Positions 40,818 to 60,634 of a stretch of DNA of 62,212 bases are shown piece by piece. Positions within the stretch are counted from its first letter, which is position 1. Each line of letters starts with the position of its first letter. The stretch covers positions 1 through 62,212 of the forward strand of contig JAISZC010000135.1 in assembly GCA_031269485.1 (NCBI GenBank), written 5' to 3'. The notes beneath the pieces were generated by a model that did no database searches, was not told the DNA's origin, and saw nothing but the letters and a program-made list of their open reading frames with translations. The translations under genes and the position numbers were made by a program. This DNA comes from Deltaproteobacteria bacterium. GTDB taxonomy: Bacteria > Desulfobacterota > Desulfarculia > Adiutricales > Adiutricaceae.

Positions 40818-40836
40818 CGTCGCAGTTCCCGCCCGC

Positions 40837-41712: not shown

Positions 41713-41742
41713 AAACAATGGTCAGCGGCTGGCCGGTCAGGC

Positions 41743-42592: not shown

Positions 42593-42674
42593 GAGGTTTT
42601 CCGTCGTTGAGGTAAGCAAAGGGGCTTGGCCCTGTCGCCCGGTCCGACCGTCTCGGCCAATTCGGCCGGTCGGT

Positions 42675-43379
42675 TCAGCCGGCGACGACGGCGATTTTCT
42701 TGGCCAACAGCCAGTCGCGGGCCAGCGGCGTCAGCACGTCGCCCGGCGTCAGCCTCAGGACGCGAGCCTCGGGGCCGGTAGAGGGCGGAAAGAGCTCCTG
42801 GACCCTGGTTTCAGTCAGCACGCGGGTTCGGGGCGTCAAGTTCGGCGTCAAGTTCGGCGGCAACGGCGTCAAGTTCGACGGCCGGCCGGCGGCCGGGTCG
42901 GCGAGGGCGTCCAGCAGGCGGCTTTCATCGACGATCCGCAAGCCCGCGTTCTTGAGAGCGGCCTCGCAAGCCAGATAAACGGAAACGAGCGACCGCGGGG
43001 CGGTGTCCTTGTGTCGCCGCCAGACCAGGCCCTCTTCGAGGGCCACGGCTCGCCGGCCCTCCAGCAGCGCCGACAAAAGGACCATGCCTTCGACGGTGCA
43101 GCCTTCGTCGCCTTGGGCTGTCCGCACCAAGGCCTGGAGCCCCAAGGACGTCAGCAAAACCGGGGCCGGGGGCCATTGGCCCGGTTCCCTGCCTTCGGCC
43201 GGCGTGATCTCGTGGCGGGCCTCCAGGGCGGCGCGCGTTTGCGGCGCGAGTCCGTCGAGAGAGCCGACCGTCAAAAGGGGCGTCCTGGGCGCCGGGACGG
43301 CGGCCCCGTCGGAGGCGGCCTTGAGGCGCTTGAGGATTTCGGTCGTCACGAGTTCGACCAAGGCGTCGTCGATCTGCAT
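42675..43379 (-). CDS. pduM: PduM-like microcompartment structural protein
   Basis: 234 aa. The N-terminal amphipathic helix DDALVELVTTEILKRLK resembles the PduM N-terminus and encapsulation peptides. The C-terminal LTPGDVLTPLARDWLLAKKI motif is as in PduM/EutT N-domains. Contains an LTP(N/L)-rich linker. Confidence 0.45.
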   Translation of the reverse strand: MQIDDALVELVTTEILKRLKAASDGAAVPAPRTPLLTVGSLDGLAPQTRAALEARHEITPAEGREPGQWPPAPVLLTSLGLQALVRTAQGDEGCTVEGMVLLSALLEGRRAVALEEGLVWRRHKDTAPRSLVSVYLACEAALKNAGLRIVDESRLLDALADPAAGRPSNLTPLPPNLTPNLTPRTRVLTETRVQELFPPSTGPEARVLRLTPGDVLTPLARDWLLAKKIAVVAG

Positions 43380-43555
43380 GTCTTCTCTCCTTGGCGCCGG
43401 GTTCGTCGAATCCCGAAGGTTCGGGGCGGGCGAAGGCGTCGGGCGGCTCGGCCTGGACTTGGCCCCTCAAGAGCTCGGCGAGGCGCCTGAGGGGCTTTGG
43501 CGAGGCCGAGGCGCGCCAAAAGCTCCAGGCCGGCCAAGGGCCGCCGGCTCGGCTC

Positions 43556-44473
43556 TCAGAAAGGCTCGTCGGGCCCGGCGGCCGGACAGCCCAGCGCGAT
43601 GCCTGCCGGGGTGACCAGGTCGGGCCGGTGGGCCACCCGGACCTTAAGGCCGGTTTCTCGGGCCACGATGGGGCCGGCCTGCGGGGCGGCGGAGCAGCCG
43701 CCGGCCAGGATCAGCTCCTTGACCACATGGCCGGCCAAGCCGGCCTTGAGAATGAGGCCCATCTTGGACAGCACGGGGGCCGTCACGGCGGCCACGACCG
43801 CCCGATTCTCCGGCGCGAGCTTGAAGGACTCGGCCGCCTCGAAGTCGAGGCGAAAGCGTCCGGCCAAGGTCAGCGTCAGATGATGCCCGCCCGTGGGCTC
43901 GTCGAAGGACTTGATCAGGCGGCCTCGGCGGAAAATCGCCGCGCCCGTGGTGCCGCCGCCGAGATCGGCCACCGCCCCGTCAATGAGGCCCAGCACCAGA
44001 TTGGCGGCCTCCGGCTCGTTCCAGACGGCCGTCGTCTCCAGGCCGGCCGCTTCGGCGACGTGACGGTGGGTGGCCGAATCGCGCTCGGAGGTGCCCGGCG
44101 GAACGGCCACGGCCGCGTGACGAAGCTTGACGCCCAGGCGGCTCTCAAGCGTGGCCTTGAGCGACGACGTGACGGACCTGGCGGCCTCGAAGTCCACCAC
44201 CAGCCCGTCGCGGACCGCCGAGGCCTCGCGGCGGGCCAAGCCTAGCGGCCGGCCCTCGGCGTCCAGCGCGACCAGCACGATGGAGTCCGTGCCCAGGTCG
44301 AGCCCCACGCGCAGCGCCTGCCCCGGCTGCGGCGGGACGGGGAGCGTGAGGCGGTCGGCGAGCTCGTCGAGAAAGGCGGCCGGGTCGGCGACGCTGGGCG
44401 GCCGGTCGACGAGGTCGGGGACCTCCCCGAAGGGCGGCTCGTCGCGGTCGGCCGCGCGTCCGGGGTCGGTCAC
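43556..44473 (-). CDS. eutJ: EutJ chaperone-like (actin/HSP70-fold ATPase)
   Basis: 305 aa with a GTG start and a GGAGGA SD. VGLDLGTDSIVLV, EPEAANL, DLGGGTTG and LAGG are typical of EutJ. Confidence 0.85.
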   Translation of the reverse strand: MTDPGRAADRDEPPFGEVPDLVDRPPSVADPAAFLDELADRLTLPVPPQPGQALRVGLDLGTDSIVLVALDAEGRPLGLARREASAVRDGLVVDFEAARSVTSSLKATLESRLGVKLRHAAVAVPPGTSERDSATHRHVAEAAGLETTAVWNEPEAANLVLGLIDGAVADLGGGTTGAAIFRRGRLIKSFDEPTGGHHLTLTLAGRFRLDFEAAESFKLAPENRAVVAAVTAPVLSKMGLILKAGLAGHVVKELILAGGCSAAPQAGPIVARETGLKVRVAHRPDLVTPAGIALGCPAAGPDEPF

Positions 44474-44493
44474 GCGTCCTCCGGCTGGTGCGC

Positions 44494-45015
<522 letters not shown>

Positions 45016-45074
45016 TCGAGCCGTCCTTGCGTTTAGCCGACGGCAATTCCCTCGCGGTCGCCGCGGTCATGAGC

Positions 45075-45377
45075 TCAGGCCTTGGGCGCGGTCTCCAAGG
45101 TCGGCAGGATGAACTCGACCTCCTGATGCGGCCTGGGGATGACGTGGACGCTCTTGAGCTCGCCGACCCGGCCGGCCGCGGCCGCGCCGGCGTCGGTGGC
45201 CGCCTTGACGGCCCCCACGTCGCCTCTGACCATGACGGTCACCAGGCCGCCCCCCACCAAGACCTTGCCGATGAGGGTCACGTTGGCGGCCTTGACCATG
45301 GCGTCGGCCGCCTCGATGGCCCCGACCAGGCCTTTGGTCTCTATCAAGCCCAAGGCTTGCTGATTGCCCGTTGCCAT
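45075..45377 (-). CDS. eutM: BMC-H shell protein (EutM/PduA type)
   Basis: 100 aa. It is nearly identical to the core of the downstream paralog at both the protein and DNA levels. Confidence 0.92.
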
Positions 45378-45588
45378 TTCTTTCCTCCTTGAGGCCGCCT
45401 CGGGCGGCCTGGGCCTGGCGGCCCGTCACGCTAAGTTCAGTCCTCCGCGGCTTCCGTTCGGAGACCGGAGGGCGGTTGTCGCCTAGGAATAATCGCCGGC
45501 GCGTCGGCAAGCCGGCCCGGCGTCGACCCGACAAGGCGGCCCTGGCGCCGGCGAGGCCCGCAGGGCTCGGCCGTCGGGCCCGAGTCGG

Positions 45589-47058
45589 CTATGACAGCCG
45601 GGACAAGTCCAGCTTGGCCATGACACGGCGGACCAGCTCGTCGAACACGTCGGTCCGGTCGGCGAGCGGCTCGGCGACGGCCGGCCGCAGTTCCTCGATC
45701 TCCTTGAGGCCGTAGGCCACGCGTTTGACGTTGATGAGGTTCAGCGGGCCCACGTTGTCGGAGGTCGAGTTGCGGCCGATGGCCCCGCAGCCCAGAGTCA
45801 GCGACGGCTCCAGGGCCGAGGCCGCGCCGATGGCCGCCAAGGCGGCCGGGGCGTTGACCACGAGGCGCGAGACCGGCTTTTTGAGCCCGAACTCCCTGAT
45901 GACGGCCTCGTCTCGGGAATGGATGGCCATGGTGTGGCCGGCGCCTTCCAAAGAGAGGATCTCGATGCATTTCAGGCAGGCCTTTTCCCAGTTTTCCTCG
46001 ACAAAGAAGCCCAAGACCGGCATGAGCTTTTCGCGGGAATAGGGGAATTTCTCGCCCACTCTCGTCTCCTGGCCCAGCAGCACTCGCGCGTCGGCCGGCA
46101 CGGCCACCCCGGCCGCCTCGGCGATGTGCCGCGCCGAGCGGCCCACCAGCTTGGCGTTCATCGTGCCCCCGGGGCCCATGAGGATGCGCTCGACCCGCTC
46201 CGAGTCGCCCGGCGGCAGGAAGTGGCCGCCTTGGCGGGTCACCTCCGCCATGACCTCCCGGCGGATGGACGCCTCGGTGACGATGGACTGCTCCGAGGCG
46301 CAGATGGTGCCGTTGTCGAAGGTTTTCGAGTCGAAGATGCGCTTGACGGCCAGCGGGATGTCGGCGCTCTTTTCGATGTAGGCCGGTCCGTTGCCAGGTC
46401 CGACGCCGATGGCGGGCGTGCCGGAGCTGTAGGCCGCCTGGACCATGGCGTTGCCCCCGGTGGCCAGGATGAGGTTCATCCGAGGGTGGGTCATCAAGGC
46501 GCGCGTGGCCTCCTTGGTGGGCATGGTCAGCGACGACAGCAGATCGGCCGGCAGGCCGCGGGCGGCCAGAGCTCGCCTCAGGACGTCCACCGTCTCGAGG
46601 ATGCAGCCCCGGGCGCTGGGGTGGGGCGAGAAGATGACGGCGCAGCCGGCCTTAAGGGCGATGAGAGCTTTGAAGATGGTCGTCGACGTGGGATTGGTCG
46701 AGGGTATCAGGGCCGTCACCAGCCCCACCGGGACGCCCACCTCGAAGAAGCGCTTTTCCGGGACCTCGCGGATGACGCCCACGGTCTTCATCGGGCGGAT
46801 GTGATTGAGGACTTCGCGGGAGGCGAAGAGGTTCTTGACGACCTTGTCCTCCCAGCGTCCGAAGCCGGTCTCTTCGCGGGCCATCTTGGCCAGGCGGACG
46901 GCCTCGGCCTCGGCCGCCGCCGCCGCGGCCTCCACGGCCGCGTCGACGGCCCGCTGATCGAGCTGGCGGTAGATCTCTTGGGCCGCCAGGGCGGCCCGGA
47001 CCAAGTTTCTGGCCTCCTGGACGGACACCAGATCCCGGTCCCTGACGTCAACGGTCAT
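45589..47058 (-). CDS. eutE: CoA-acylating acetaldehyde dehydrogenase
   Basis: 489 aa (AGGAGCG SD). Aldehyde dehydrogenase fold of the EutE/PduP type (GVIREVPEK...ALIPSTNPTST..., catalytic-Cys region GTICASEQS). The C-terminal amphipathic tail is DVFDELVRRVMAKLDL. Confidence 0.88.
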   Translation of the reverse strand: MTVDVRDRDLVSVQEARNLVRAALAAQEIYRQLDQRAVDAAVEAAAAAAEAEAVRLAKMAREETGFGRWEDKVVKNLFASREVLNHIRPMKTVGVIREVPEKRFFEVGVPVGLVTALIPSTNPTSTTIFKALIALKAGCAVIFSPHPSARGCILETVDVLRRALAARGLPADLLSSLTMPTKEATRALMTHPRMNLILATGGNAMVQAAYSSGTPAIGVGPGNGPAYIEKSADIPLAVKRIFDSKTFDNGTICASEQSIVTEASIRREVMAEVTRQGGHFLPPGDSERVERILMGPGGTMNAKLVGRSARHIAEAAGVAVPADARVLLGQETRVGEKFPYSREKLMPVLGFFVEENWEKACLKCIEILSLEGAGHTMAIHSRDEAVIREFGLKKPVSRLVVNAPAALAAIGAASALEPSLTLGCGAIGRNSTSDNVGPLNLINVKRVAYGLKEIEELRPAVAEPLADRTDVFDELVRRVMAKLDLSRLS

Positions 47059-47136
47059 AAGTCGCGCTCCTGACGGAGCCGTCCGACGGGGTCGGCCGTG
47101 GGCCCGTCCCCAGGCCCACGGTCCTGACGGACGGGC

Positions 47137-47793
47137 TCAGTAGGCGGTCGGGTTGTCGGCCACGAACTCCACGGCCGCTCCGAAGGCGTCGCAGGCCGCC
47201 TTGCAGGCCGACTGGCTGCCGGTCAGCAGCCCGCCGCCGAAGTTGGTCTCCGAAGGCGGGCCGTAGAAGGCGGCCAGGCGGACGTCGGCGGCCTTCAGGG
47301 CCATGTCCAGCGCGTAGACGGCCTCCAGCGGCGGGGCGATGAGGTAGGCCAGCGAGTCGCCTTCCTTGACGTTGGCGGCCTTGGAAAGGTAGCTGCCGGA
47401 CCGCGAGATGCAATGGGCGTAGTATATGATGGTGTTGTCGTCGTTGGCCGAGACGAACCAGGCCTCGTTGTCGATGAAGGCTTTCAGGGCGTTGAGCCCG
47501 CTTCTGATCTCGGCCGGATTGGGTCCGGCCAGGACGCCCAGGATCTCGCCGGCCAGCTTGGTGTTGGCGTTGGCGGCCCCGCCGTAGAAGCTCTTGGCGT
47601 AGACGACCTCGACGTCGGCCATCTTGGTGGCTTCGTCGAGGGCGGTGTAGGTCACGTCGTCGCAGTCGGCCGTCACCAGGCCCAGGCTTTTGACGCCGGG
47701 CTTGAGACCAAGATCGCGGGCCAGCTCGGCGCTGACGTTGGGGATGATCTTGGCGGCCAGAATGGTGGTCTTTAGGGGATCGTGCTTTGCCAT
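47137..47793 (-). CDS. eutL: BMC-T shell protein EutL
   Basis: 218 aa (AGGAGAGG SD). Full-length resemblance to EutL (…LGLVTADCDDVTYTALDEATK…FYGPPSETNFGGGLLTG…). Confidence 0.9.
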   Translation of the reverse strand: MAKHDPLKTTILAAKIIPNVSAELARDLGLKPGVKSLGLVTADCDDVTYTALDEATKMADVEVVYAKSFYGGAANANTKLAGEILGVLAGPNPAEIRSGLNALKAFIDNEAWFVSANDDNTIIYYAHCISRSGSYLSKAANVKEGDSLAYLIAPPLEAVYALDMALKAADVRLAAFYGPPSETNFGGGLLTGSQSACKAACDAFGAAVEFVADNPTAY

Positions 47794-47856
47794 TGTGAGG
47801 CCTCTCCTGATGAGCCGGAAAACGGCGGGCCGCCCAAAGGGGCCCGGCCGAGGCGG

Positions 47857-48726
47857 CTAGAGCTTAAGATCGAGCCCGCTGGCCTTCTTCTCCAGCATGA
47901 GCTTGACGATGTCGGCCAGGTAGCTGCCGGCCTCCACGGCCGGGGTGCCGCCGCGGTGAATGTTCGAGACCACGGTTCTTTTGGCCTCCGGGATGTCGTG
48001 ATAGGCCTTGTAGCACAAGTAGGCCGACATGCTCTCGGCGGTCGCCAGACCAGGCCGCTCGCCTATGAGGCAGACCACCACCTCGGCGCCGACGATTTCG
48101 CTGACGTCGTCTTCGGAGCCCACCCGGCCGTACTGGACCAGGAAGGGCGGCGAGGTTTTCAGTCCCGAGGCCGCCAGGCCGTCGGTCATGGCCTTGAGGC
48201 AGTCGATGGCGTTGGCGGTCACCGCCGTCGTCGACAGCCCGTCGGCGATGAAGACGACGATTTTGGCGAGGGCGCCCACGTGAGCCTTGATCTTGGCCGC
48301 CGTCTCGGCGTCGAAGCGCCGGCCCAGATCGGGCCTGGTCAGGTAGACGTCCTTGGTGTCGCATTTGGTGCGAAACTGAGGCAAGTTGTGGCGGGCGATC
48401 CAGTCGGCTGGTATTTCGTTGAACACCGCGTCCATGGCCACGGCGTGATCGGCCCTGAACCTCAGCAAAGTGTCCGTCAGGTAGCGGGGCCCGGCGCGAC
48501 CGACGCCGATTCTGGCCGGCGTGATCTTCTTGACGGCCTTGAGGGCCTCGAGGTTGTGCGGCGAAGGCACGTTTATGACTTCTGAGAGATCGATCTCGGT
48601 GATGTCGGGCAAAATTTCCTCGGACCCGGCCGAGCGGACGGCCGCGGCCGCGACGGGCGGCGCCTGGCCGGCTAGGTCCTGCAATATTTCGGCGACGTAG
48701 CGTCTGATGTCGTTTTCGGAAACCAT
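47857..48726 (-). CDS. eutC: Ethanolamine ammonia-lyase small subunit
   Basis: 289 aa. TPARIGVGRAGPRY...FRADHA is typical of EutC. The N-terminal helix ENDIRRYVAEILQDL resembles the EutC encapsulation peptide. Confidence 0.9.
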   Translation of the reverse strand: MVSENDIRRYVAEILQDLAGQAPPVAAAAVRSAGSEEILPDITEIDLSEVINVPSPHNLEALKAVKKITPARIGVGRAGPRYLTDTLLRFRADHAVAMDAVFNEIPADWIARHNLPQFRTKCDTKDVYLTRPDLGRRFDAETAAKIKAHVGALAKIVVFIADGLSTTAVTANAIDCLKAMTDGLAASGLKTSPPFLVQYGRVGSEDDVSEIVGAEVVVCLIGERPGLATAESMSAYLCYKAYHDIPEAKRTVVSNIHRGGTPAVEAGSYLADIVKLMLEKKASGLDLKL

Positions 48727-48807
48727 CGTCCAACCCCCATGAGGTGTTGATTGTCGACGTTCGGCGCGGGCCCGGGCAAGCTCAGGCCGGCCGGCTCGTC
48801 CGGCGGC

Positions 48808-50172
48808 TCACAGAAACAGCGAGGCGTCGCCCGCCTTGGCCGTCAGGCGTCCCTTCTCGTCCATGAGCTCCCGCTTTTTCAGCCACTCGAAGAACTCCGG
48901 GGCGGGGGTCAGGCCCAGGATCTCCCGGAGGGCGGCGTCGTCGTGAAAGCTGGTGTCCTGATAGGCCAGCATGACGTCGTCGCCGACGGGCACGCCCATG
49001 TAATAATTGGCGCCGGCCATGGCCGCCAGCATGGTGGCCATTTCCTGATCGTCCTGGTTGATTTTGGTGTGATTGGTGTAGCAGGGGGCCATGCCCATGG
49101 GGATGCCCAGCAGCTTGCCCATGAAATGGTCCTCCAGGGTGGCCCGCAAGATTTGGCGGCCGTCGTAGAGGGTTTCCGGCCCGATGAAGCCCGAGACGTT
49201 GTTGAGCATGAAGGGCTTGAACACCCTGGCGAGGCCGTAGCAGCGAGCCTCGAGGGTCATCAGATCCACGCCGCCGTCGGCGTCGATGGACTGCTCGGAA
49301 CCCTGGCCGGTCTCGAAATAAAGCAGATTGGGGCCCGGGGCCTGGCCTAGGGTGTGGATGCAGTCGTAGGCCTCCCGGAGGATGGCCGCGTTGACGCCGA
49401 AGCCGTCGTTGGCCAGCTGGGTGCCGGCCAGGCTCTGAAATAGGCAGCAGGCGCGGGCGCCCTTTTCGACGGCCTGCATCTGGGTGGTCACGTGGGCCAG
49501 CACGCAGTTTTGGGTGGGGATCTCATGGCGCTGCATGAAATCCCACAGCGCGTCCAAAATGGCCTTGGTGTTGTCCACGGTGTCCTCGACGGGGTTGACG
49601 CCGAAGACGGCGTCGCCGGAGCCGTAGGAGACCCCCTCGGCCAAGGAGGCTATGATGCCCTTGAGGTCGTCCGCGGGGTGGTTGGGCTGGTTGCGGAACG
49701 ACAGCGTCCCGGGCAGGCCGATGGTGGTCGCGCACGTCGAGGGCACCTTGATCTTGGAGGCCGCGTAAACCAGATCCATGGCCGTCATGATCTTGGCCAC
49801 GGCGGCGGCGGCTTCGGCCTCCAGCCCGCGGGATATCCGCAAAATGTCCTCGCCGCCGGTCTCGTGCGACAGCAGCCAGTTTCTCAGCTCGCCCACGGTC
49901 CAGCCCTTGACGCGCCTGTATATGCCCAGGCTCAGGTCCTCCTTGAGGACCCGGGAAACTTCGTCCTTTTCAGGCGGCAGCACCGGGTTTTCGTAAATGT
50001 CCTCCAAGGTCGCCCTCGACAGGACCATGCGGGCGGCGGTGCGCTCGGTGACGGTGCTGGCGGCCCGGCCCAAAAGAACGTCGCCCGACTTTTCGTCGTT
50101 GGCCTTGGCCAGCACGTCGGTCAAGTTTTTGAACGCATAGACCTGTCCGGCCATTTTGGTCTTCAAAATCAC
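48808..50172 (-). CDS. eutB: Ethanolamine ammonia-lyase large subunit
   Basis: 454 aa from GTG 50172, with GGAGG 5 nt upstream. (V)ILKTKMAGQVYAFKNLTDVLAKANDEKSGDVLLG aligns with the EutB N-terminus. The upstream 49 codons of the track ORF were discarded. Confidence 0.92.
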   Translation of the reverse strand: MILKTKMAGQVYAFKNLTDVLAKANDEKSGDVLLGRAASTVTERTAARMVLSRATLEDIYENPVLPPEKDEVSRVLKEDLSLGIYRRVKGWTVGELRNWLLSHETGGEDILRISRGLEAEAAAAVAKIMTAMDLVYAASKIKVPSTCATTIGLPGTLSFRNQPNHPADDLKGIIASLAEGVSYGSGDAVFGVNPVEDTVDNTKAILDALWDFMQRHEIPTQNCVLAHVTTQMQAVEKGARACCLFQSLAGTQLANDGFGVNAAILREAYDCIHTLGQAPGPNLLYFETGQGSEQSIDADGGVDLMTLEARCYGLARVFKPFMLNNVSGFIGPETLYDGRQILRATLEDHFMGKLLGIPMGMAPCYTNHTKINQDDQEMATMLAAMAGANYYMGVPVGDDVMLAYQDTSFHDDAALREILGLTPAPEFFEWLKKRELMDEKGRLTAKAGDASLFL

Positions 50173-50520
50173 GGCTACCTCCAAGATGCGCCGCCGAGGG
50201 CGGCCGGCTCTCGCCGAAAGCCCGCCGGAGGGCGAGCGGCCGGCGGCGCGGCTCGTGAGGGAAGCCGCGGCCGGCCTAAGAAGCCGACGACGGGCCGCGT
50301 CCGCCCTCGTCGGCTTCAAGCTCGAGCTTAAGTTTGAGATCCTTGGGCTTGCGGTTCCAATTTAAAGGCTCCAATCTTGATTTGGCGAACCCCGCCGCGG
50401 CAAGGTTCAACTCTCCGCCGCTGGCGGCGGCCGGCCTTTGGCGCCGGCCGGCGGCTCGCGCGTCCGAGTCCGAGTCCGACTGGCCGTCGAGCCCGGGGCG
50501 GGCTTTTCGAGGCCGGCCGC

Positions 50521-51009
50521 CTAAGGTTCGAGGGGGGCGGCGCGCAAGCTGCGCCGCAGCTGCCCGTCGGCCGACTGCAAAAGGCAGGCGCGCAGCTCGT
50601 CGAGGCCTTGGCCGGTCACGCTCGACACCTTGAATATCCGCTCCGCTCCGGCCGTCGTCAAGGAATGGACGGCCCGGTCGAGCGAGACCGAGTCGGCGAT
50701 GTCCGTCTTGGTGACCACGCCGATCACCGGCGCCTTGAGGGCCAGGCTTAGCTTGACCGGCAGCCAGATCGCGCGGCGTCCGTCCATGACCATCAGGATG
50801 GCCGACGCCCGCGAGGAGTTTAGAATCAGGGCGTTGTAAAACCGCGGAATGGACAGCATCTCGCCGGGCGTGTCGATGGACTGGCCGGCGTAGTACGTCA
50901 GGGCCTGGGTTTTGGACACGTCGTTCGGACCGAGCCCCAGGGCCGCCAGAAGCGAGGTCTTGCCGGCGGCCACCGGGCCGATGACCATGAGCGGGCCTGA
51001 GCGGACCAA
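50521..51009 (-). CDS. eutP: EutP/PduV-family small GTPase
   Basis: 162 aa from TTG 51009; the alternative ATG at 50988 gives MVIGPVAAGKTSLL. P-loop GPVAAGKT, DTPGE and VVTKTD (NKxD-like) are present. Confidence 0.82.
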   Translation of the reverse strand: MVRSGPLMVIGPVAAGKTSLLAALGLGPNDVSKTQALTYYAGQSIDTPGEMLSIPRFYNALILNSSRASAILMVMDGRRAIWLPVKLSLALKAPVIGVVTKTDIADSVSLDRAVHSLTTAGAERIFKVSSVTGQGLDELRACLLQSADGQLRRSLRAAPLEP

Positions 51010-51019
51010 GAAGCCGCCC

Positions 51020-51358
51020 CTAGGTCCGCGTGACGGGCGCCGGATCGAAGCTCAGCACGTCGACGAGGGCCGCGATGGCGCCGCGCAGGGCGCTGTCGAC
51101 CGAAGCCACGTCGCCGGTGAAGATCAGGCAGCCGGTGAAACGGTCGACGAATTCGAGCTTGACGTCCCCGGCCTTGTCGGCGGCGTCGGCGGCTATGATG
51201 GCCCCCTCGCCCGGCGTGACGGTCATCAGGCCGATGGCGCCGCGCGGCTCGACTCCGATCTGGCGGCACAGCTCGGCGCTGGGATTGGCGATCATATGGG
51301 CCAAGGTGGCCTGCTTGCCCGGAACGTACTCGTGTATTTGCCGCGGCTTCACCGTCAT
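51020..51358 (-). CDS. eutS: Circularly permuted BMC shell protein EutS/PduU
   Basis: 112 aa. RQIHEYVPGKQATLAHMIANP...IGLMTVTPGEGAIIAADAADKAGDV is typical of EutS. Confidence 0.85.
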   Translation of the reverse strand: MTVKPRQIHEYVPGKQATLAHMIANPSAELCRQIGVEPRGAIGLMTVTPGEGAIIAADAADKAGDVKLEFVDRFTGCLIFTGDVASVDSALRGAIAALVDVLSFDPAPVTRT

Positions 51359-52186: not shown

Positions 52187-53701
52187 ATGAAGAGAGCCGT
52201 GCAAACGGGCATGCTGCTGCAGCGAGGCTGCGGGCTGACCCTGCTGACGCCGGACGAGGTCAAGGAAACCCATTACGCGGGCTTGGAAATTTTGGCCAAG
52301 ACCGGCGTGTTCGTCGATTCCGACGAAGCCCTGGAAATTTTTCACTCGATCGGCTGCGTCGTCGACAAATCGAGCAAGAGGGTCAGGATCCCGGCCCATC
52401 TCGTGGAAGCCGCCTTGGAAAGCGCCCCGTCGCAGTTCATCGTCAGGGGACGCGATCCGCAAAAGGCCTTGCGCGTCGGCGGCAAAAGGGTCAGCTTCAC
52501 CCCCTTCGGCGAAGGCGTCAGGGTCAACGATCCTTACACTGGAGAGCAGCGCGATTCCAAAAAAATCGACTTGGCCGCCATCACCCGGCTGTCGGACTGG
52601 ATCGACGAATTCGACATCATTCATCGGGCCGTGGCCTCCCAAGACGTCCATCCCGAGTCCTATCCCCTCCACAATTTCGAGGCCATGGTCCACAACACCG
52701 TCAAGCCCATCTCCTTGGGCGGCGGCAACGGCTATCTGGTCGACAAGATGATCCAGCTGGCCGCCATGGTCAGAGGCGACAAGGACTCGCTGAGCCTCGA
52801 GCCGCTGATGGTCATCAGCACCTGTCCGGTCAGCCCCTTGAGGCTGGTCAGCGAGTGCTGCGAGATCGCCATCCACGGCGCCCGCCACCGCATCCCGGTG
52901 CGCTTCACCACCATGGCCCTGTCGGGCAGCACCAGCCCCATCACCATGGTCGGCACCATGGCCGTCCAGAACGCCGAGTTCATGGCCTGCGCGACCTTGA
53001 GCCAGGCCGTCAGCAAGGGCGCGCCCATCTTCCGCAGCGGCACCTCCACCCAGCTCGACATGAAGAAGGGCGACGCCTCCGTCGGCTCGCCGGAGATGGC
53101 CATGATGGCGGCCATGAACGCCCAAATCGCCCAGTTCCACGGCGTGCCCTCCTGGACCGGCGGCACGTAGACGGACAGCAAGATTCCCGGCGGCGCCCAG
53201 GCCGGCCACGAAAAAACTCTCACCGCCCTCCTGGCCGGCTTGGCAGGGTCCAACGTCATCTACGGGGCGGGCATGCTTGAATGCGGAATGACGGTCGACT
53301 ACGGGCAGCTGCTTTTGGACTCCGACATGCTCCAGATGGTCCTCTTCCTTCTTCGAGGCGAAGAAGTCAACGAGGAAAACCTGGACCTCGAGGAAATCCA
53401 CGAAATAGGGCCCCACGGCAACTACATGATGAGCAAGCTCACCAGAAAGTTCATGCGGGCCCAGAGCCGGCCCAAATTTTTCGACCGCATGAACATGGAG
53501 GCCTGGAAGAAGGTCGGCAGCCCCGACTGCTACCAGGTCGCTCTGGACAAGGCCAAGGATCTGCTGGTCAACCACAAGGTCGAGCCTTTGAGCGACAAGG
53601 TGGCCAAGGACATCCGGGAGTTCATCGTCGAGGCCGAAAAGGAGCTGGGCGTGCCCAGCAAGAACCCCGACTACGATCCGACCAAGGGGTCCTTGGCCTG
53701 A
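52187..53701 (+). CDS. mttB: Trimethylamine:corrinoid methyltransferase MttB with an in-frame TAG (putative pyrrolysine) at 53168-53170
   Basis: Track ORFs 52187..53170 and 53240..53701 share one frame and are separated only by the TAG. Both halves are MttB-family. Readthrough gives ...HGVPSWTGGT-(TAG)-TDSKIPGGAQAGHEK..., 504 codons in total. GGGGGA SD before the ATG. Confidence 0.7.
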
Positions 53702-53825: not shown

Positions 53826-54467
53826 ATGAGCTTTGGCTTCGCCGTCTTCGATTTCGACATGACTCTCATCGATTCCATCAAGCCCCTGACCATCAGCGCC
53901 AACCTCTTGGCCAAGGAGTTCGGGCTCGCGGAAGTCAAGTACGAGCAGGTCTACGACGCGGAGGTCTCGGTCAAGAACTGCACCTTCGAGCTGCTGTGGT
54001 CGGCCTTGTGGGGCCGCTGCGATCCGGCCTGGTATCCGGCCTACTTGGATCACATGACCGAGGCCGAGTATCGGGCGATGGAGCTTTTTCCCGGCGCCCG
54101 CGAGACGCTCGAGGAGCTCGTCCGCCGCGGCGCGCGCCTGGGGCTGGCCTCCAACCGCGATTATCCGGCCAAGGCCCTCCAGGCTCTGGGCGTGGACGGA
54201 CTCTTCGAGGCCGTGGTGGGCCAGTTCGACGTCGCCAACGTCAAGCCCGCGCCTGACATGATTTTGAAGACTTTGGCGCTTCTGGGCGCCCGGCCGCAGG
54301 ACGCCCTGTACGTCTGCGACTCGCGGGGCGATCTGCTGGCGGCGGCCGCCGCCGGCGTCAAGACCTTCGCCATGAGCACCGGCGGCCATCCGGTCGAGGA
54401 GCTTTTGAGCCTGGGCGCCTGGAAGGCCGGCGACCAGCTCGCCGACATCCTGCCCTGCTTCGTCTGA
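53826..54467 (+). CDS. HAD-superfamily phosphatase (phosphoglycolate-phosphatase-like, HAD-IA)
   Basis: 213 aa. Motif I FDFDMTLIDS, motif II LASNR, Lys motif KPAPD, motif IV VCDSRGDL. Confidence 0.8.
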   Translation: MSFGFAVFDFDMTLIDSIKPLTISANLLAKEFGLAEVKYEQVYDAEVSVKNCTFELLWSALWGRCDPAWYPAYLDHMTEAEYRAMELFPGARETLEELVRRGARLGLASNRDYPAKALQALGVDGLFEAVVGQFDVANVKPAPDMILKTLALLGARPQDALYVCDSRGDLLAAAAAGVKTFAMSTGGHPVEELLSLGAWKAGDQLADILPCFV

Positions 54468-54627
54468 AGGCCGCCGGGCCGGTTCGGGCCGAAACGCCAG
54501 GCCGGGCCAAGGCCCGCCGGCTTGGATTCGGTCCGCTTTTTCAAGTTAGCCGCAAACCGCGCCGCCGCGAAGCGTCGGCGTTCAAACCTCAGCTTGCTGG
54601 GCTATAGTCCCAAGGAGATTTCACCGT

Positions 54628-55866
54628 ATGTCAAAAATGGACGTTTCGAAGATGCTGCGCTTCAAGCCGACCAACACGGCCGAAGCCAATGAAAAGTACA
54701 TCAACGCCGCATCTCTGAATAAATTAGCCAAAAATGCCTATGAAACCAGCGACGCCGACTTTGTTAGGGCTCAAATCAAGGAAGTCATGGAACAGAACTA
54801 CGATTTGGGCGAAGTTTTAGAGGTCTACGAGATTTTCGGCGGCTACGTCAACCGTAGTTTCGGCGTGATCTGCCGTAAAGACGGCAAAAACGAGGACTAC
54901 TTCGTCCGCAAGTATAAGGCCAAATTCAACACCGAGGCCAATCCCGATGACATTCTTTATGAGCACAATCTAATCAACTTTTGTTTAGGCAACGGGCTCA
55001 AGGAAGCCGCCAAGGTCTACCAGTCCAACAACGGCACCACCATGGTCAGCCTGACGGACAAGGACGAGAACGGCAAGCAGATCAAGCGCTACTTCGCCGT
55101 TTACGACTACCTGCCCGGCGAGGACAAGTGGACTTGGGTCAACAACGAAAACAACCCCACCGAGTTCCGCAACATCGGCGCCTTGCAGGCCCGGTTCCAC
55201 CTCTACGGCCAAGGCTTCGAGCCGGGCCGGCTGGCCAAGGCCGAACCGAAGATTCAGCACCTGCTGCCCTCCTTTGTGGACTTGTTCTCCAAATTGGCCG
55301 CCCGCGACGTCCCCGACTCGATTTTTCACGCCACCTTCAATTCAAAGCTGCCGAGGATCATCGAGGTCATCAAGTCCAACCAGATCCCCGACGACGCGTT
55401 CAAGCAGATGCCCGAAACCCCCATCCACAGCGATCTGCACGCCGGCAACGTCAAGTGGGTGGGCGAGGAGTGCACCGGCATCTTCGACTTCGACTGGTCG
55501 AAAATCGACGTGCGCCTCTTTGACATCGCCTTCGCCCTGATCTACTGCTGCTCCTCATGGCGGCCCGAGACCGACGGCATCCTGCGGCTTGACGACTGCC
55601 GCTACTTCCTGGAAGGCTACAACAGCCAGCTCAAGAAGCTCCAGGGCCTGCCGCCGCTCAACGCGACGGAGAAGCAGCATTTCCCGACCATGATGGCCGC
55701 CGGCTGCCAGTATCTGATCAATTGGTGCACGACTCTTTATTTCTACGAGGATCCCACCATCGTCAACGACTACGAGGCGCTTTACTACCTGCTGCACATC
55801 ACCCGTCTGATGGACTGGATTGAAGCCCACAAGTCCGATTTGGCCAAGGTGGTGGAGGGCGTCTGA
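54628..55866 (+). CDS. APH / choline-ethanolamine-kinase-fold phosphotransferase, paralog 1
   Basis: 412 aa (AAGGAGA SD). Nucleotide-binding GGYVNRSFGV...FVRKYK. Catalytic loop HSDLHAGNV. Metal-binding FDFDWS. Confidence 0.78.
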   Translation: MSKMDVSKMLRFKPTNTAEANEKYINAASLNKLAKNAYETSDADFVRAQIKEVMEQNYDLGEVLEVYEIFGGYVNRSFGVICRKDGKNEDYFVRKYKAKFNTEANPDDILYEHNLINFCLGNGLKEAAKVYQSNNGTTMVSLTDKDENGKQIKRYFAVYDYLPGEDKWTWVNNENNPTEFRNIGALQARFHLYGQGFEPGRLAKAEPKIQHLLPSFVDLFSKLAARDVPDSIFHATFNSKLPRIIEVIKSNQIPDDAFKQMPETPIHSDLHAGNVKWVGEECTGIFDFDWSKIDVRLFDIAFALIYCCSSWRPETDGILRLDDCRYFLEGYNSQLKKLQGLPPLNATEKQHFPTMMAAGCQYLINWCTTLYFYEDPTIVNDYEALYYLLHITRLMDWIEAHKSDLAKVVEGV

Positions 55867-55932
55867 GGAGCCCCTGGCTGGGGACGGTCCTGGTGACGTC
55901 TCACCGTTTCGCAACATTTTAGGAGGTAACGC

Positions 55933-56994
55933 ATGACCGAAAAATCTCCGCAGGCTGTATTGGACGCCAAGCAGCTCAAGCATGCCAAGAGAGGCATCTT
56001 TGCGGGCGTGATGTCGGGGATCCTCTGGGGGGCCTCGGGCACAGTCCTGGGGATGGCCATCGGCTTTGAGCCTTTGGCCAGCGCCCAGGGGTCGCTTGAA
56101 GGCGACGCGCTGCTGTGCACGCTGGTGGCCATGGCCTTGTGCGGGGCCATCCTGCACGATTTCTTCGCCTCTGTCTGGGTGGCCGTCCACAACATCAGGG
56201 CCGGCAAGTTCAAAGAGTACGGCCGGACCCTCCGCACCAAGCCGGGCAAGATGGTTTGCCTCGGGGCCATCCTGGGCGGCCCCATCGGCATGAGCGGCTA
56301 CCTGCTGGGCATCACGTTCGTCAACGCCGCCTACGCGCTGCCCATCACGGCCGCCTATCCGGCCGTGGCCGCGGTGCTGGCCACCATCTTCTTCAAGGAG
56401 CGCAACCCGGCCCGCGTCTGGGTCGGCGTGGTTCTCTGCATCTTGGGCTCTTTTCTGGTTTATTACGCGCCCATGGAAGGCGACAAGGGCGCCTTCTTCA
56501 CCATCGGCATGGTTTTGACCACCTTGGCCTGCATCGGCTGGGCCACTGAGGGCCTGCTGTCGACCTACGGCATGGACATGCTCGATCCCGACATCGCCCT
56601 GGGCATTCGCGAGGGCGTGAGCGCCTTGGCCTATCTGATCTTCGTGCTCCCCATCGTCACGATCTTCATGACCACCAAATTTGGCTCCGCCACCCCCATC
56701 TGGGAGCTGGTCGTCGGCTGCTTAGGCTCTTCGGCCTTCCCCATCTACGCCTTCGGCGGCTTTTTGGGCGGCTTTTCCTACGTCTACTGGTATAGGGCCC
56801 TCAACATGACCGGCGTGGCCCGGGCCATGGCCCTCAACGTGACGTACGCCTTGTGGGGCGTCATCTTCGCCGGCCTGTTCACTGGCTTTGTGACCACCGC
56901 TCAGCTGTTCATGGGCGCCGGGTCCATCGCCGTCGGGGCCATCTTGGTTTCGGCCAATCCTCGCGAGCTCTTCAAGCTCAGAGACGTCAAGTAA
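55933..56994 (+). CDS. DMT-superfamily (EamA-like) 10-TM transporter
   Basis: 353 aa (AGGAGG SD). Two homologous halves of about 5 TM segments each, rich in Gly/Ala/Leu. Confidence 0.65.
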   Translation: MTEKSPQAVLDAKQLKHAKRGIFAGVMSGILWGASGTVLGMAIGFEPLASAQGSLEGDALLCTLVAMALCGAILHDFFASVWVAVHNIRAGKFKEYGRTLRTKPGKMVCLGAILGGPIGMSGYLLGITFVNAAYALPITAAYPAVAAVLATIFFKERNPARVWVGVVLCILGSFLVYYAPMEGDKGAFFTIGMVLTTLACIGWATEGLLSTYGMDMLDPDIALGIREGVSALAYLIFVLPIVTIFMTTKFGSATPIWELVVGCLGSSAFPIYAFGGFLGGFSYVYWYRALNMTGVARAMALNVTYALWGVIFAGLFTGFVTTAQLFMGAGSIAVGAILVSANPRELFKLRDVK

Positions 56995-57006
56995 AGGAGG
57001 AGCTCC

Positions 57007-57288
57007 ATGGCAGTATTACCCCTCCGCTTCAGGATTTTGCACATCGTCAACAAAGCTGCGGGGAAGCCCTTGAAGACCGACGAGATCTACAAGGAACTCT
57101 ACGACGAGTACTCCGGCGAGGGCCAATTCAGCCTCGATCTGATGGAAAGCCACCTGATGAGCATCAAGGCCGTCGGCCTGATCGACGCCGTCGATCCTTA
57201 TTTCGACGAGCTGGGCGAGGCCCGCTACAAGTACATCATCACCGAAACAGGCACGGCCAGGACCAAGTACCTGCCAGCCCAACTCTAA
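57007..57288 (+). CDS. Small hypothetical protein, possibly winged-helix-like
   Basis: 93 aa. Strong AAGGAGGAG SD, 12 nt after the transporter stop. No family recognised. Confidence 0.55.
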   Translation: MAVLPLRFRILHIVNKAAGKPLKTDEIYKELYDEYSGEGQFSLDLMESHLMSIKAVGLIDAVDPYFDELGEARYKYIITETGTARTKYLPAQL

Positions 57289-57302
57289 ACCCTTTCGTTT
57301 TC

Positions 57303-57346
57303 GGCGGGAGGCCCGCGGTCCGGGCCTCCCGCCGATTGCATTTTTT
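57303..57346 (+). terminator. Strong stem-loop followed by a displaced T-run
   Basis: Perfect 13-bp stem GGCGGGAGGCCCG/CGGGCCTCCCGCC (57303-57333) with a 5-nt loop. A T7 run begins 7 nt later. Confidence 0.55.
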
Positions 57347-57666
57347 TCCGTCTGACGCCAAGCCCGCGCTCCGCCGACGGGGCCGGCGCCGAACGTCGGA
57401 GTTCGAGGCTGCCCTTGGCGGCCGGGCGGTTTTTTTCTCGCGGCGTAGCGCTCGTTCGCAAGCCGCGCCGCGGAGCCCGAAAAAAAACGACGACGGCCGC
57501 GTTCGGCGCGTCAGTCGGGGCGCCGCGAGTCCAGCCGGGGGGCTGGAAGGCCGCTCAGGCCGCCAGCCGCAGGAAGCGCGGCCGATTTTCGGTCAGACGC
57601 GGGTGAAGGGCCTTTTTCTAAACTTTCTCTCTGCGAGTCGTTCGCAGGTTTACCTTGGGGTAGAGC

Positions 57667-59103
57667 ATGAATTTCTATAATTTTTTTACTGACGACCAGA
57701 AAAAAAATATCCATGAGGCTTCGCTGACCATACTTGAAGAAACCGGCATGATCGTGAAAAACGTCGATGCCTTGGAAATCTTCAAGACTCATGGTTGCCA
57801 AGTCGACGGCAAGCGGGTGAAGTTTCCGCGCAAGCTGGTCGAGGAAAAGATCAAGTCCGTGCCGCCGACCTACACCTTCACGGCCCAAGACCCTGACCTC
57901 GACGTCACCTTGCCCGGCGATCGCCCTGTCATAGTCACCGGCTCTTCGGCGCCCAACGTGATCGATCCGGTGACCGGCGAAGAACGGTACGGCACCAGCC
58001 GCGACGTGGCCAACATCGCCTATCTGATCAACGAGCTGCCCGGCTTCGACGTTTTTTCCATATCCATATTGGCCGACGACGCGCCGGCCGACATGCGTTC
58101 GCTCTACCGCTTCTACCCGGCGCTGAAGAACTGCCGCAAGCCGGTCCGTTCCAACACGCCCTCCATTCCGGACCTCGAAAAAGTTTTGGATTTGGGCTAC
58201 ACTGTCGCAGGAGGCAAGGAGGCCTATTTCGCCAGGCCGTTCATCAACCACCATTACTGTCCGGTCATCTCCCCGCTGACGTACGACGTGGAATCGACCG
58301 CGTCCATGATATATCTGGCCAAGCTGGGCCTGCCGGTCTACGGCACCATCGTCCCCAACGCGGGCATGACCTCGCCGATGAGCCTTTTGGGCACCCTGAC
58401 GATGGGCAACGCCGAGTATTTGTCGCTGGCCTTCCTGATGCAGGCCGTCAGGCCCGGGACGGGCGTCATCTACGCGGTGCTCTCGACGGTGGGCGACATG
58501 CGCAACGGCGACTACGCCCCGGGCGCCATCGAGACGGGCATTCTGCAGATGGGCCACTCCGAGATGGCCCGGTGGTACAACGTGCCCTCCGGCGGGTACA
58601 TAGGCCTGACCAACTCGCAGTCCAACGACGTCCAAAACGGCTACGAAACCAGCCTCAACACGTCCGCGGCGCTGCTGGCCGGCTCGGATTTGTTCAACAT
58701 GGGCGGCCTGCTGGGCGGCCTGATGGCCTTCGACTTCGCCAAGGCGGTCATCGACAACGAGATCGCCATGAACCTCAAGCACCTCAAGAAGGGCATCGTC
58801 TACGACGAGAACGACTTTTGTCTCGAGCTCATCGACAAGACCGGCCCGGGCGGCAATTACATGGTCCTGCCCCATACGGCCAAGAACCTCAGAAAAGTCA
58901 CCCACTACCCGTCCATCGGCGTCCGCGGCTTCAGAAGCAAGTGGATCAACGACGGGCGGCCCAACGCGGCCGACCAGGCCACGGCCCTGGCCAAGAAGAT
59001 CTTAGGCAAGCCCAATCCCAAGGCCTTCTCGGAGGAGCTGGACAAGAAAATCCGTGATCACATCCCCGGCCTGCCGGAAGGTTTGGCCGTCTGGTACGAA
59101 TAA
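57667..59103 (+). CDS. MttB-superfamily methyltransferase without an amber codon (non-Pyl type; substrate unknown)
   Basis: 478 aa. It is collinear with the interrupted mttB over its whole length and has Leu where the other gene has TAG (…VPSGGYIGL-TNSQ…). Confidence 0.8.
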   Translation: MNFYNFFTDDQKKNIHEASLTILEETGMIVKNVDALEIFKTHGCQVDGKRVKFPRKLVEEKIKSVPPTYTFTAQDPDLDVTLPGDRPVIVTGSSAPNVIDPVTGEERYGTSRDVANIAYLINELPGFDVFSISILADDAPADMRSLYRFYPALKNCRKPVRSNTPSIPDLEKVLDLGYTVAGGKEAYFARPFINHHYCPVISPLTYDVESTASMIYLAKLGLPVYGTIVPNAGMTSPMSLLGTLTMGNAEYLSLAFLMQAVRPGTGVIYAVLSTVGDMRNGDYAPGAIETGILQMGHSEMARWYNVPSGGYIGLTNSQSNDVQNGYETSLNTSAALLAGSDLFNMGGLLGGLMAFDFAKAVIDNEIAMNLKHLKKGIVYDENDFCLELIDKTGPGGNYMVLPHTAKNLRKVTHYPSIGVRGFRSKWINDGRPNAADQATALAKKILGKPNPKAFSEELDKKIRDHIPGLPEGLAVWYE

Positions 59104-59422
59104 GGCGAACGCGCGCCTGCGCGGCCGCGCCCCTCGCGGGCCGGCCGCGCCGCCTTCGACGGACCGGGCGGCCGCCGACCGTCCGATCCGCGCCGTTCGG
59201 CGGCGTCCGGTGGGCGGCGCCCGCGAACCTTGAGTCTTTGGAACGAAGGTTGATCGATGTGAAAAACCACAGTTAGGGTCAAAATCATCAAACTTTGACG
59301 CCTATTGTCAAGGTATTATTTTAATCATTAAGCTAAAATGGGATTTTTGCACATCGATCAAGGTTGGCCGTACACTGAACGAATTGGCCGTCCGCAGCCA
59401 AGCCAAACCAGGAGGTTGACCA

Positions 59423-60634
59423 ATGGATACGACTAACATGAAGCGCATTGGAGAAATAAAACAGACCCAATTTGAGAAATTTCGTGAATCATTGGTTAAA
59501 ATCAAAAAAAAGGTCGATCTTCTGTATAATTACGTTGAATCTCAGGTTTTGCATAATCAAATAGTTGAGCTTTTTAAAAATTATAATTTAGGTGAAGTTG
59601 AAGAGATATTTGAGGTCTTCGGCGGCTACACCAACCGTAGCTTCGGCGTTATTTGCCGCCAGGGCGACGTCCGAACCGAGCACTTCGTCCGCAAATATAA
59701 AGTCGAGGCGACGCCGGCCGACGTCCTGATGGAGCACAGTCTAATCAATTACGCCGTAGCCCACGGATTCCAGGAGGCGGCCGACATCGTGTTGGCCCAG
59801 GATGGACGCAGCTACGTCGAAATCAAGGAACTCAAAAACGAGAAGGAAGTAAGTCGCATTTTCACCGTCTACAGGTACCTCCTGGGACGGGACAAATACT
59901 CCTGGATCGACAACAAATGCACGCCCAAGGAGTACAAGAACCTAGGCGCCCTCTTGGCCCGCTTCCACCTGTCGGCTCATGACTTCAAGCCTTCGGACCA
60001 GGCCCATAAGACCGAGCCCAAAGTTGAAGTGCTGCTGCCAAGCTTGGCCAAAACTTTTTCCGAACGCGCCGCTCAGCCTATTCAAAGTCAGTTTCACGCC
60101 TATTTCGCGTTCAACCTGCCACGCTTGCTCGAGCATATTGAAAAAAACGCTTTGACGGACGACGAGTACGCGCAACTCCCTACGTGTCCCATTCATGGCG
60201 ACTATCACGCCGGCAACGTCAAGTTCGACGGCGAAGAAACGGTTGGTCTCTTCGATTTCGACTGGTCCAAGATCGACGTTCGCCTCTTCGACGTCAGTTT
60301 GGGGATGGTCTACTGTTGCGGCTCGTGGGACATGGTCACCGATGGCCAGCTGCGTTTGGACGACTGCCGTAGCTTTCTGGACGGCTACAATTCAACTCTC
60401 AAAGGCACGGTTTTTTCGCCACTCAAGGAAATAGAAAAAAATACCTTCGTCAAAATGTTGGCCAACGCACATATTTATCTGGTTTATTGGCTCACCGAGC
60501 TGTGGTACTACCTAGATCCCGATAACATCAACGATTACGAGGCCGTCTCGTACCTGACGCATTTCCTCAGAGGCCTCGGCGGGGTGGAGGAAAACGCTTC
60601 GGCCCTCAATTGGCTGGCGCGCTCCCAAGCCTGA
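59423..60634 (+). CDS. APH / choline-ethanolamine-kinase-fold phosphotransferase, paralog 2
   Basis: 403 aa (AGGAGG SD). GGYTNRSFGV...FVRKYK, HGDYHAGNV and FDFDWS. A clear paralog of 54628..55866. Confidence 0.78.
   Translation: MDTTNMKRIGEIKQTQFEKFRESLVKIKKKVDLLYNYVESQVLHNQIVELFKNYNLGEVEEIFEVFGGYTNRSFGVICRQGDVRTEHFVRKYKVEATPADVLMEHSLINYAVAHGFQEAADIVLAQDGRSYVEIKELKNEKEVSRIFTVYRYLLGRDKYSWIDNKCTPKEYKNLGALLARFHLSAHDFKPSDQAHKTEPKVEVLLPSLAKTFSERAAQPIQSQFHAYFAFNLPRLLEHIEKNALTDDEYAQLPTCPIHGDYHAGNVKFDGEETVGLFDFDWSKIDVRLFDVSLGMVYCCGSWDMVTDGQLRLDDCRSFLDGYNSTLKGTVFSPLKEIEKNTFVKMLANAHIYLVYWLTELWYYLDPDNINDYEAVSYLTHFLRGLGGVEENASALNWLARSQA

Follow-up and report, generated by a model that had tools for sequence, protein, structure and literature searches.

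The gene mttB, at positions 52187..53701 on the forward strand of a 62,212-nucleotide stretch of DNA from a Deltaproteobacteria bacterium of the order Adiutricales (contig JAISZC010000135.1; hereafter, the window), very probably encodes a functional trimethylamine (TMA):corrinoid methyltransferase in which a single in-frame UAG specifies pyrrolysine (Pyl), as judged from sequence comparisons across the lineage. The original prediction, made from the letters of the window, held that two open reading frames (ORFs), 52187..53170 and 53240..53701, share one frame and are split only by a TAG at codon 328, and translation bore this out. The frame runs from an ATG at 52187 to a TGA at 53699-53701, and its sole interruption is the TAG at 53168-53170 (forward strand), codon 328 of 504 sense positions. 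The first ORF encodes 327 amino acids before the TAG, and the second is the same frame resumed at a TTG. The 23 codons from the UAG to this first possible restart codon (codons 329-351, positions 53171..53239, forward strand) are free of stops, as had been claimed; the peptide quoted with that count had 24 residues, a trivial slip.

We searched the readthrough product of mttB against all PDB chains with phmmer (HMMER). The top match was MttB of Methanosarcina barkeri (7XCL/7XCM; E value 5e-100, 339 bits, residues 8-486 against 9-491), while the glycine-betaine enzyme MtgB, which does not contain Pyl, scored 209 bits against the same product. In the HMMER alignment, position 328 stands opposite X334, the pyrrolysine, in 7XCL and opposite the K334 substitute in 7XCM. 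The earlier placement of the TAG in the Pyl column, residue 334 of M. barkeri MttB, is therefore exact. The aligned Pyl region reads 'AQFHGVPSWTGGT-x-TDSKIPGGAQAGHEKTLTALL' in the window and 'AQFYGLPSYVAGS-x-SDAKVPD-DQAGHEKTMTTLL' in M. barkeri. We also scored the product, with Pyl written as K, on the NCBIfam equivalog model TIGR02369 ([trimethylamine--corrinoid protein] Co-methyltransferase; cut-off 525 bits). The readthrough product reached 565.8 bits over profile positions 2-469, above the cut-off, and the two separate fragments scored 360.3 and 184.8 bits. The MttB-superfamily paralog at 57667-59103 scored 330.4 bits, under the cut-off; it is 31% identical to the Pyl-type mttB and carries a sense codon where the latter has Pyl. 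This sense codon had been predicted to be Leu, an assignment that depends on the alignment: a gapless alignment places Leu opposite the TAG, and a BLASTP alignment with a 2-residue gap places Asn there. In the HMMER alignment, the Pyl column is Leu in MtgB, a solved non-Pyl homolog.

The residues known to matter for catalysis are mostly kept. In Pyl-type MttBs, Gly110 and Tyr364 (M. barkeri numbering) are 100% conserved and the Y364F substitution lowers Vmax approximately 28-fold, while Met249, Thr111, and Gly372 make pocket or corrinoid contacts (PMC9842639). The HMMER alignment pairs G110 with G108, M249 with M243, Y364 with Y359, and G372 with G367 of the window. The only changed pocket residue is T111, which is E109 in the window; the described Thr111 contacts involve the Gly110-Thr111 peptide backbone (PMC9842639). 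Both the catalytic Tyr359 and Gly367 are encoded downstream of the TAG. By every sequence criterion examined, the predicted product belongs to the Pyl-dependent MttB family.

We then compared the gene with its orthologs, taking one genome per GTDB species. We detected 13 orthologs with 88-96% amino acid identity, found in nine termite-gut 'Deltaproteobacteria bacterium' metagenome-assembled genomes (MAGs), three 'Candidatus Adiutrix sp.' MAGs (Thermodesulfobacteriota; Desulfarculia; Adiutricales), and 'Deltaproteobacteria bacterium Smac51', which has a complete 4.48-Mb genome (CP026657.1; 4,483,042 bp). The TAG is present at codon 328 in all 14 sequences (the window plus the 13 orthologs), and none has another stop or a frameshift before codon 505/506. 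Third positions neighboring the TAG vary among the orthologs, the TAG does not, and the GC content of the loci ranges from 0.45 to 0.65. Synonymous sites are near saturation, with a median proportion of synonymous differences (pS) of 0.61, and the ratio of nonsynonymous to synonymous divergence (dN/dS) is 0.035 upstream of the TAG and 0.059 downstream. Codons 329-351 occur as 14 distinct DNA sequences that encode only 2 peptides, which differ by L or M at one site (pooled pS 0.53; proportion of nonsynonymous differences, pN, 0.036). Because these codons are conserved as protein despite 14 versions of the DNA, they are translated, which excludes termination at the TAG followed by re-initiation. 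On these alignments, a TAG that coincides with the column of Pyl334 and is invariant in 13 other species is far beyond chance.

As a control, we examined the genuine TAG stop of eutC, which varies among TAG, TAA, and TGA across the same relatives, whereas the mttB TAG is constant. The eutC stop (47857-47859) was itself a second readthrough candidate, since it is in frame with an EutL-like shell gene to 47137 with no stop between. We rejected this as coincidence, given that the eutC stop of relatives is TAA or TGA and the frame is different. Of the 48 window genes called from codon-position GC bias, 11 end in TAG, 30 in TGA, and 7 in TAA. TAG is thus an ordinary stop in the window, not a reassigned codon. 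The original prediction had raised this caveat, correctly, and the same is true of other bacterial Pyl users. In this small sample, the nucleotide after the stop is G or C at all 11 ordinary TAG stops. The nucleotide after the Pyl UAG is A in 14 of 14 orthologs, and G in a distant Pyl-type paralog from a termite-gut MAG (locus L018).

A search of the rest of the genome for a pyl cluster had been proposed as a check; run on the genomes of relatives, it located the genes in Smac51 and in MAG Pcl387_bin95. A PylS search with the Methanosarcina mazei catalytic domain returned only Methanosarcina among the matches listed. For the bacterial C-terminal subunit, PylSc, we gathered candidates by an exhaustive search of 50%-identity representatives, ranking by GC-driven amino acid composition, cluster names, and a profile search. 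Two representatives, both MAG proteins, were named 'pyrrolysine--tRNA(Pyl) ligase large subunit [Deltaproteobacteria bacterium]' and served as seeds for the profile search, which recovered a PylSc encoded on the Smac51 chromosome, three Ca. Adiutrix sp. PylSc proteins, and many from termite MAGs. The NCBI pipeline annotation already names pylS in Smac51 and the Adiutrix MAGs. The Smac51 locus (L014; CP026657.1:2,428,139-2,448,990) has the order tRNA-Pyl(CUA)-pylSn-pylSc-pylB-pylC-orf104-mgtE and lies approximately 1.6 Mb from the TAG-containing mttB ortholog (L012) on the same chromosome. All four of its pyl proteins score above their NCBIfam equivalog cut-offs (pylSn 120 bits against 51, pylSc 281 against 178, pylB 388 against 348, and pylC 346 against 248), as do pylB and pylC in Ca. 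Adiutrix. The pyl genes follow the Smac51 order in two Ca. Adiutrix loci as well (L016 and L022). In Pcl387_bin95, contig JAITLH010000303.1 (L023) carries a pylSn fragment followed by pylSc, pylB, and pylC, and contig JAITLH010000017.1 (L006) of the same MAG holds a TAG-containing mttB that is 95% identical to that of the window; the GC contents of the two contigs are compatible (0.51 and 0.55, respectively).

The pyl genes of these relatives are dispersed, with at least four arrangements among the loci compared (L014, L015, L016, L021, L022, and L023; L018 and L020; L027-L033): pylT-Sn-Sc-B-C without pylD; pylSn-Sc-B; pylSc-D-T-Sn-B-C; and stand-alone pylC-pylD. The second arrangement is that of Ca. 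Adiutrix JAITBV, in which pylC does not adjoin pylSn-pylSc-pylB. The third is that of two termite MAGs (L018 and L020), whose PylSc is 64% identical to that of Smac51. The fourth occurs on five metagenome contigs, which carry pylC-pylD pairs without pylS, pylB, or pylT in the sequence examined (10 kb upstream in three of them). The PylC of the stand-alone loci shares 56-59% identity with that of Adiutrix, a similarity equal to that between the Smac51 and Adiutrix proteins. One such locus (L030) adjoins a B12-binding corrinoid protein, a DUF1638 protein, an ASKHA/hydantoinase-like protein, and a GntR regulator. Several further observations concern the same loci. L018 carries, at 7784-9274, a second Pyl-type mttB lineage, 38% identical to that of the window and with a TAG at the same column; this gene directly adjoins the pyl cluster of the termite-gut MAG and lies downstream of a sigma-54 activator. 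The pyl cluster of L020 contains two tandem tRNA-Pyl genes (4866-4937 and 5401-5472). L015 has a PDDEXK_2 transposase-like gene and a short PylSc-like fragment (tblastn, 5552-5803) between pylSc and pylB, at 3732-5803. On metagenome contig L028, a tRNA-Sec (UCA) gene (4279-4376, reverse strand) lies approximately 3 kb from pylD, which hints that this lineage uses both selenocysteine and pyrrolysine.

We also analyzed the region 3' of the UAG. The Rfam model RF02510, PYLIS_3 ('pyrrolysine insertion sequence mttB'), matches positions 53168..53270 (forward strand) with 73 bits against a gathering threshold of 38, over the full model (1-100) and starting at the TAG. Matches were detected in 10 of 10 relatives tested, with 62-73 bits, including the distant L018 paralog. 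The model contains few base pairs and is in effect a profile of coding sequence; therefore, a match mostly indicates a Pyl-type mttB coding sequence. Inside the match, beginning 70 nt past the UAG, is a 26-nt stretch, TTGGCAGGGTCCAAYGTCATCTACGG (53240..53265, forward strand; codons 352-360, including the catalytic Tyr359), that we had noticed before the Rfam run because it is near-invariant at synonymous sites. Among the 14 orthologs, the two longest invariant runs of the gene (14 and 11 nt, against at most 8 elsewhere) both fall here, and no other 9-codon window is as low in synonymous entropy (0.19 compared to a gene mean of 1.0); an equally low value arose in 36 of 20,000 permutations. Its pooled pS is 0.15, compared to 0.5-0.67 elsewhere in the gene, and it uses the rare codons TTG and GCA in a gene whose GC content at third codon positions (GC3) is 0.88.

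The synonymous constraint on the 26-nt stretch is real. The stretch may be a cis-acting recoding signal, such as a protein or RNA binding site or a ribosome-pausing element, a role that we consider doubtful. If true, the signal would be a gene-specific layer of bacterial pyrrolysine decoding, resembling the selenocysteine insertion sequence (SECIS), and would provide for efficient UAG-to-Pyl decoding of one gene where UAG ends approximately one quarter of ordinary genes. No RNA structure was supported around the UAG, with an RNAalifold covariation term of -0.72 kcal/mol and a minimum free energy z-score of +0.57. Pair statistics were no better than in shuffled or shifted controls, save for a slight surplus of double-sided changes, contributed by only two pairs; most of the predicted pairs never vary, which gives the covariation test low power. 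We rejected a long-range RNAalifold fold enclosing the UAG, for which covariation did not exceed the controls and stability was no better than shuffled, and we dropped a 'UCUACG'/'CGUAGA' pairing across the UAG because orthologs with ACA-TAG or ACC-TAG break it. The paper that is the source of the mttB PYLIS likewise found no common structure for it (PMC3639795), and the PYLIS of mtmB, according to the summary given there, enhances decoding and is not required (PMC3639795).

From the conservation of the codon and the machinery of the relatives, we infer pyrrolysine insertion in the organism of the window by the following route. UAG codon 328 would be decoded by the amber-suppressor tRNA-Pyl (CUA), with a split synthetase (PylSn/PylSc) charging it and with pyrrolysine made by PylB, PylC, and PylD encoded elsewhere in the genome. 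Because UAG also ends approximately one quarter of ordinary genes, decoding would compete with termination by release factor 1 (RF1), and pyl expression is probably conditional. The full-length product would be a 504-residue TIM-barrel enzyme in which the Pyl imine, aided by Tyr359 and Gly108, binds and activates trimethylamine. The methyl group would then pass to a Co(I) corrinoid protein and could feed the Wood-Ljungdahl pathway in this putatively acetogenic lineage. Acetohalobium arabaticum reportedly expresses its pyl genes only on TMA (Prat et al. 2012, PNAS), and Ca. Adiutrix intracellularis is reported to be a putative homoacetogen (Ikeda-Ohtsubo et al. 2016). Such homoacetogeny and TMA-dependent pyl expression would fit the feeding of methyl groups into the Wood-Ljungdahl pathway and a conditional expansion of the code.

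Several points weigh against the decoding of the UAG as pyrrolysine. The 62-kb window contains no pyl gene or tRNA-Pyl, as had been noted: its sole tRNA is tRNA-Lys(CTT), tblastn with PylS, PylSn, PylB, PylC, and PylD gave no match, and Pfam scans of all called genes revealed none. TAG is common as an ordinary stop in the window; therefore, readthrough of mttB must be partial or regulated. Pfam scans detected no MttC corrinoid protein or activase gene adjoining mttB and no B12-binding protein among the called genes of the whole window. The connection between mttB and the pyl genes in Pcl387_bin95 depends on binning, although that in Smac51 does not. Lastly, the pylT-Sn-Sc-B-C clusters of Smac51, two Ca. 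Adiutrix MAGs, and P0147-type relatives yielded no pylD and no remnant of it within 10 kb. PylD of Smac51 or Adiutrix was also absent among the 40 matches of a protein search that used a termite-gut PylD as seed and that has false negatives.

If the TAG were a sporadic nonsense allele or the gene a recent pseudogene, only the 327-residue fragment would be made and the downstream part would be decaying. The role of TAG as a stop for 11 of the 48 window genes and the absence of pyl genes from the window would fit this explanation. However, the TAG is shared by all species-level orthologs, with variable synonymous sites flanking it and no further stops or frameshifts. The orthologs are not assembly copies of one sequence, since all 14 differ in DNA and pS is approximately 0.6, and in these genomes a genuine stop, that of eutC, switches between TAG, TAA, and TGA. 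Purifying selection remains strong past the TAG despite saturated synonymous sites, and the conserved Tyr359 and Gly367 lie there. The population check proposed in the original prediction thus speaks against a sporadic allele, its alternative of a very recent pseudogene was not borne out, and we regard the probability of decay as negligible. Translation might instead stop at the TAG and re-initiate at the TTG at 53240, yielding two polypeptides that assemble without pyrrolysine. This split gene would account for the fact that the first start codon past the TAG is a never-changing TTG that heads the 26-nt stretch. The same TTG has no Shine-Dalgarno-like motif before it, as read from the sequence, and codons 329-351, which a split gene would leave untranslated, show strong purifying selection on the encoded peptide although every DNA sequence is different. 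Furthermore, the residue lost would be the catalytic Pyl, and the same TAG column recurs in the 38%-identical L018 paralog and in archaeal MttB. We therefore consider a split gene highly improbable.

Readthrough might also occur without canonical pyrrolysine if pylD is truly absent, through near-cognate suppression, insertion of a Pyl precursor or analogue (such as 3-methylornithyl-lysine), or scavenging of Pyl from gut neighbors. The clusters without pylD and the failure of the protein search to recover a Smac51 PylD would favor this, but the search has proven false negatives: a metagenome scan with a PylD profile detected ten PylDs, 41-46% identical to the seed, all of which the protein search had missed (their contigs correspond in length to none listed for its 40 matches). 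The misses thus fall at the very distance that matters here. Therefore, we do not read the non-detection in Smac51 as absence. A 104-amino-acid ORF after pylC in Smac51 was considered as a pylD remnant and rejected, having no family match and no tblastn similarity. The L018 and L020 relatives do carry pylD, separate pylC-pylD loci encode a PylC close to that of Adiutrix, and the JAITBV cluster without pylC shows that split systems occur in the family. Moreover, pylB and pylC are intact and above their equivalog cut-offs, which would be pointless without the last step. We think a non-canonical residue unlikely. Most simply, genomes with the pylT-Sn-Sc-B-C cluster would carry pylD at another site; alternatively, some lineages (Smac51 and some Ca. 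Adiutrix) might truly be without the gene and acquire pyrrolysine, or finish making it, by other means.

We compared this system with those described previously. The M. barkeri MttB (PDB 7XCL/7XCM/7XCN; PMC9842639) is the founding Pyl-dependent TMA methyltransferase. The window mttB resembles it in aligning end to end, in having UAG at Pyl334, in keeping Gly110, Met249, Tyr364, and Gly372, and in sharing the motif AQF[HY]G[VL]PS...G[ST]-O-[ST]D[SA]K[IV]P (PMC9842639). It differs in being bacterial, in the change from Thr111 to Glu109, in having no adjacent mttC, and in the frequency of UAG as an ordinary stop. The synthetase also differs, being split into pylSn and pylSc in the relatives of the window rather than encoded by a single archaeal pylS. 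The non-Pyl MttB superfamily (MtgB, PDB 2QNE/9YCE; MtcB) shares the TIM-barrel fold family, and the paralog at 57667-59103 belongs there; unlike these proteins, the window mttB matches Pyl-MttB better (the 339 compared to 209 bits given above), exceeds the Pyl-type cut-off, and carries a UAG.

Bacterial Pyl users have long been known among Firmicutes and Desulfobacterota, and what is new here is the lineage, Adiutricales; we found no open-access paper linking Adiutricales (Adiutrix, Smac51) to pyrrolysine. The known Desulfobacterota users include Bilophila wadsworthia, Desulfovibrio, and the delta1 symbiont of Olavius algarvensis (PMC3941956, PMC10653893, PMC1976440). The window's organism shares with the gut members of this set (including locus L017) the same phylum-level group, life in an animal gut, an mttB that contains a UAG and is cut short by gene callers, and the presence of non-Pyl MttB paralogs alongside it in the genome; its relatives also have the split PylS. 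Unlike them, it belongs to Adiutricales, in the class Desulfarculia; the PylSc of its lineage is only approximately 49% identical to the L017 gut type; and its mttB lies apart from the pyl genes and beside a eut microcompartment operon. The pyl order of the Adiutricales relatives, pylT-Sn-Sc-B-C without pylD, also departs from the canonical pylSn-Sc-B-C-D. In the literature, bacterial pyl clusters are ordered pylTScBCDSn or pylSnScBCD, in some cases with interruptions (PMC3941956). In the Firmicutes Desulfitobacterium hafniense and Acetohalobium arabaticum, which have pylTScBCDSn-type clusters (PMC3941956), UAG is likewise both a stop and a Pyl codon, whereas phylum, gene order, and genomic context differ. 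Relative to Rfam PYLIS_3, the Adiutricales clade adds a 26-nt core that is invariant at synonymous sites.

These findings leave the current view of the pyrrolysine mechanism unchanged and extend pyrrolysine decoding to Adiutricales, which live in the guts of termites and arthropods and have mainly been regarded as putative acetogens that consume hydrogen. They suggest that Adiutricales can draw methyl groups from trimethylamine, a capacity relevant to how carbon and nitrogen move through insect guts and to the competition with methyl-reducing methanogens there. Because gene callers cut mttB into two fragments, standard annotation of MAGs does not reveal the trait. The family offers natural material for studying sequence context in UAG-to-Pyl decoding and the extent of pyl gene dispersal. 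Of specialist note are the dispersed pyl genes with pylD not located, the constrained core in PYLIS_3, and the conserved island of eut genes and mttB.

The Pfam and NCBIfam scans also allowed us to describe the surroundings of mttB. A complete, divergently transcribed operon for an ethanolamine-utilization (eut) microcompartment lies on the reverse strand at 37891..51358 and comprises eutS, P, B, C, L-like, E, M-like, J-like, N, and Q genes, a PduO-type adenosyltransferase gene, eutA, and an RnfC-like gene (Pfam). Downstream of mttB, a conserved block on the forward strand (53826..60634) encodes, in order, a HAD phosphatase (53826-54467), an APH-family kinase (54628-55866), an EamA transporter (55933-56994), orf93 (57007-57288), the non-Pyl MttB-superfamily paralog (57667-59103), and a second APH-family kinase (59423-60634). 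The adjacency of eut and mttB and the order of the downstream block are kept in every relative with enough flanking sequence (loci L001-L013). In the Smac51 and Adiutrix loci there are additional genes for a CehA/McbA-type metallohydrolase and for another EutB-like protein; this extra EutB-like gene, 55% identical to the window EutB, lies beside the canonical eutB at 5846-7210 in L009, 5805-7241 in L012, and 389-1795 in L011. By its predicted gene content, the island of eut, mttB, kinase, and phosphatase genes may serve the breakdown of amines or of phospholipid head-group compounds. We speculate that the two MttB types, Pyl and non-Pyl, might work in succession on first a quaternary and then a tertiary amine, with ethanolamine as the final product.

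Other features of the window are more distant from mttB. A cobalamin riboswitch (RF00174, 80 bits; 33734-33929, reverse strand) lies upstream of a xanthine/uracil-family permease gene (32281-33579) and adjoins the tRNA-Lys gene. A segment of approximately 2.2 kb at 3656-5909 has no called gene and a GC content of 0.43, compared to a window mean of 0.64. Low-GC patches at 12001-14000 and 22001-24000 coincide with a CheA-like gene and a DUF3696/AAA ATPase gene (GC3 0.52) and may represent acquired DNA.

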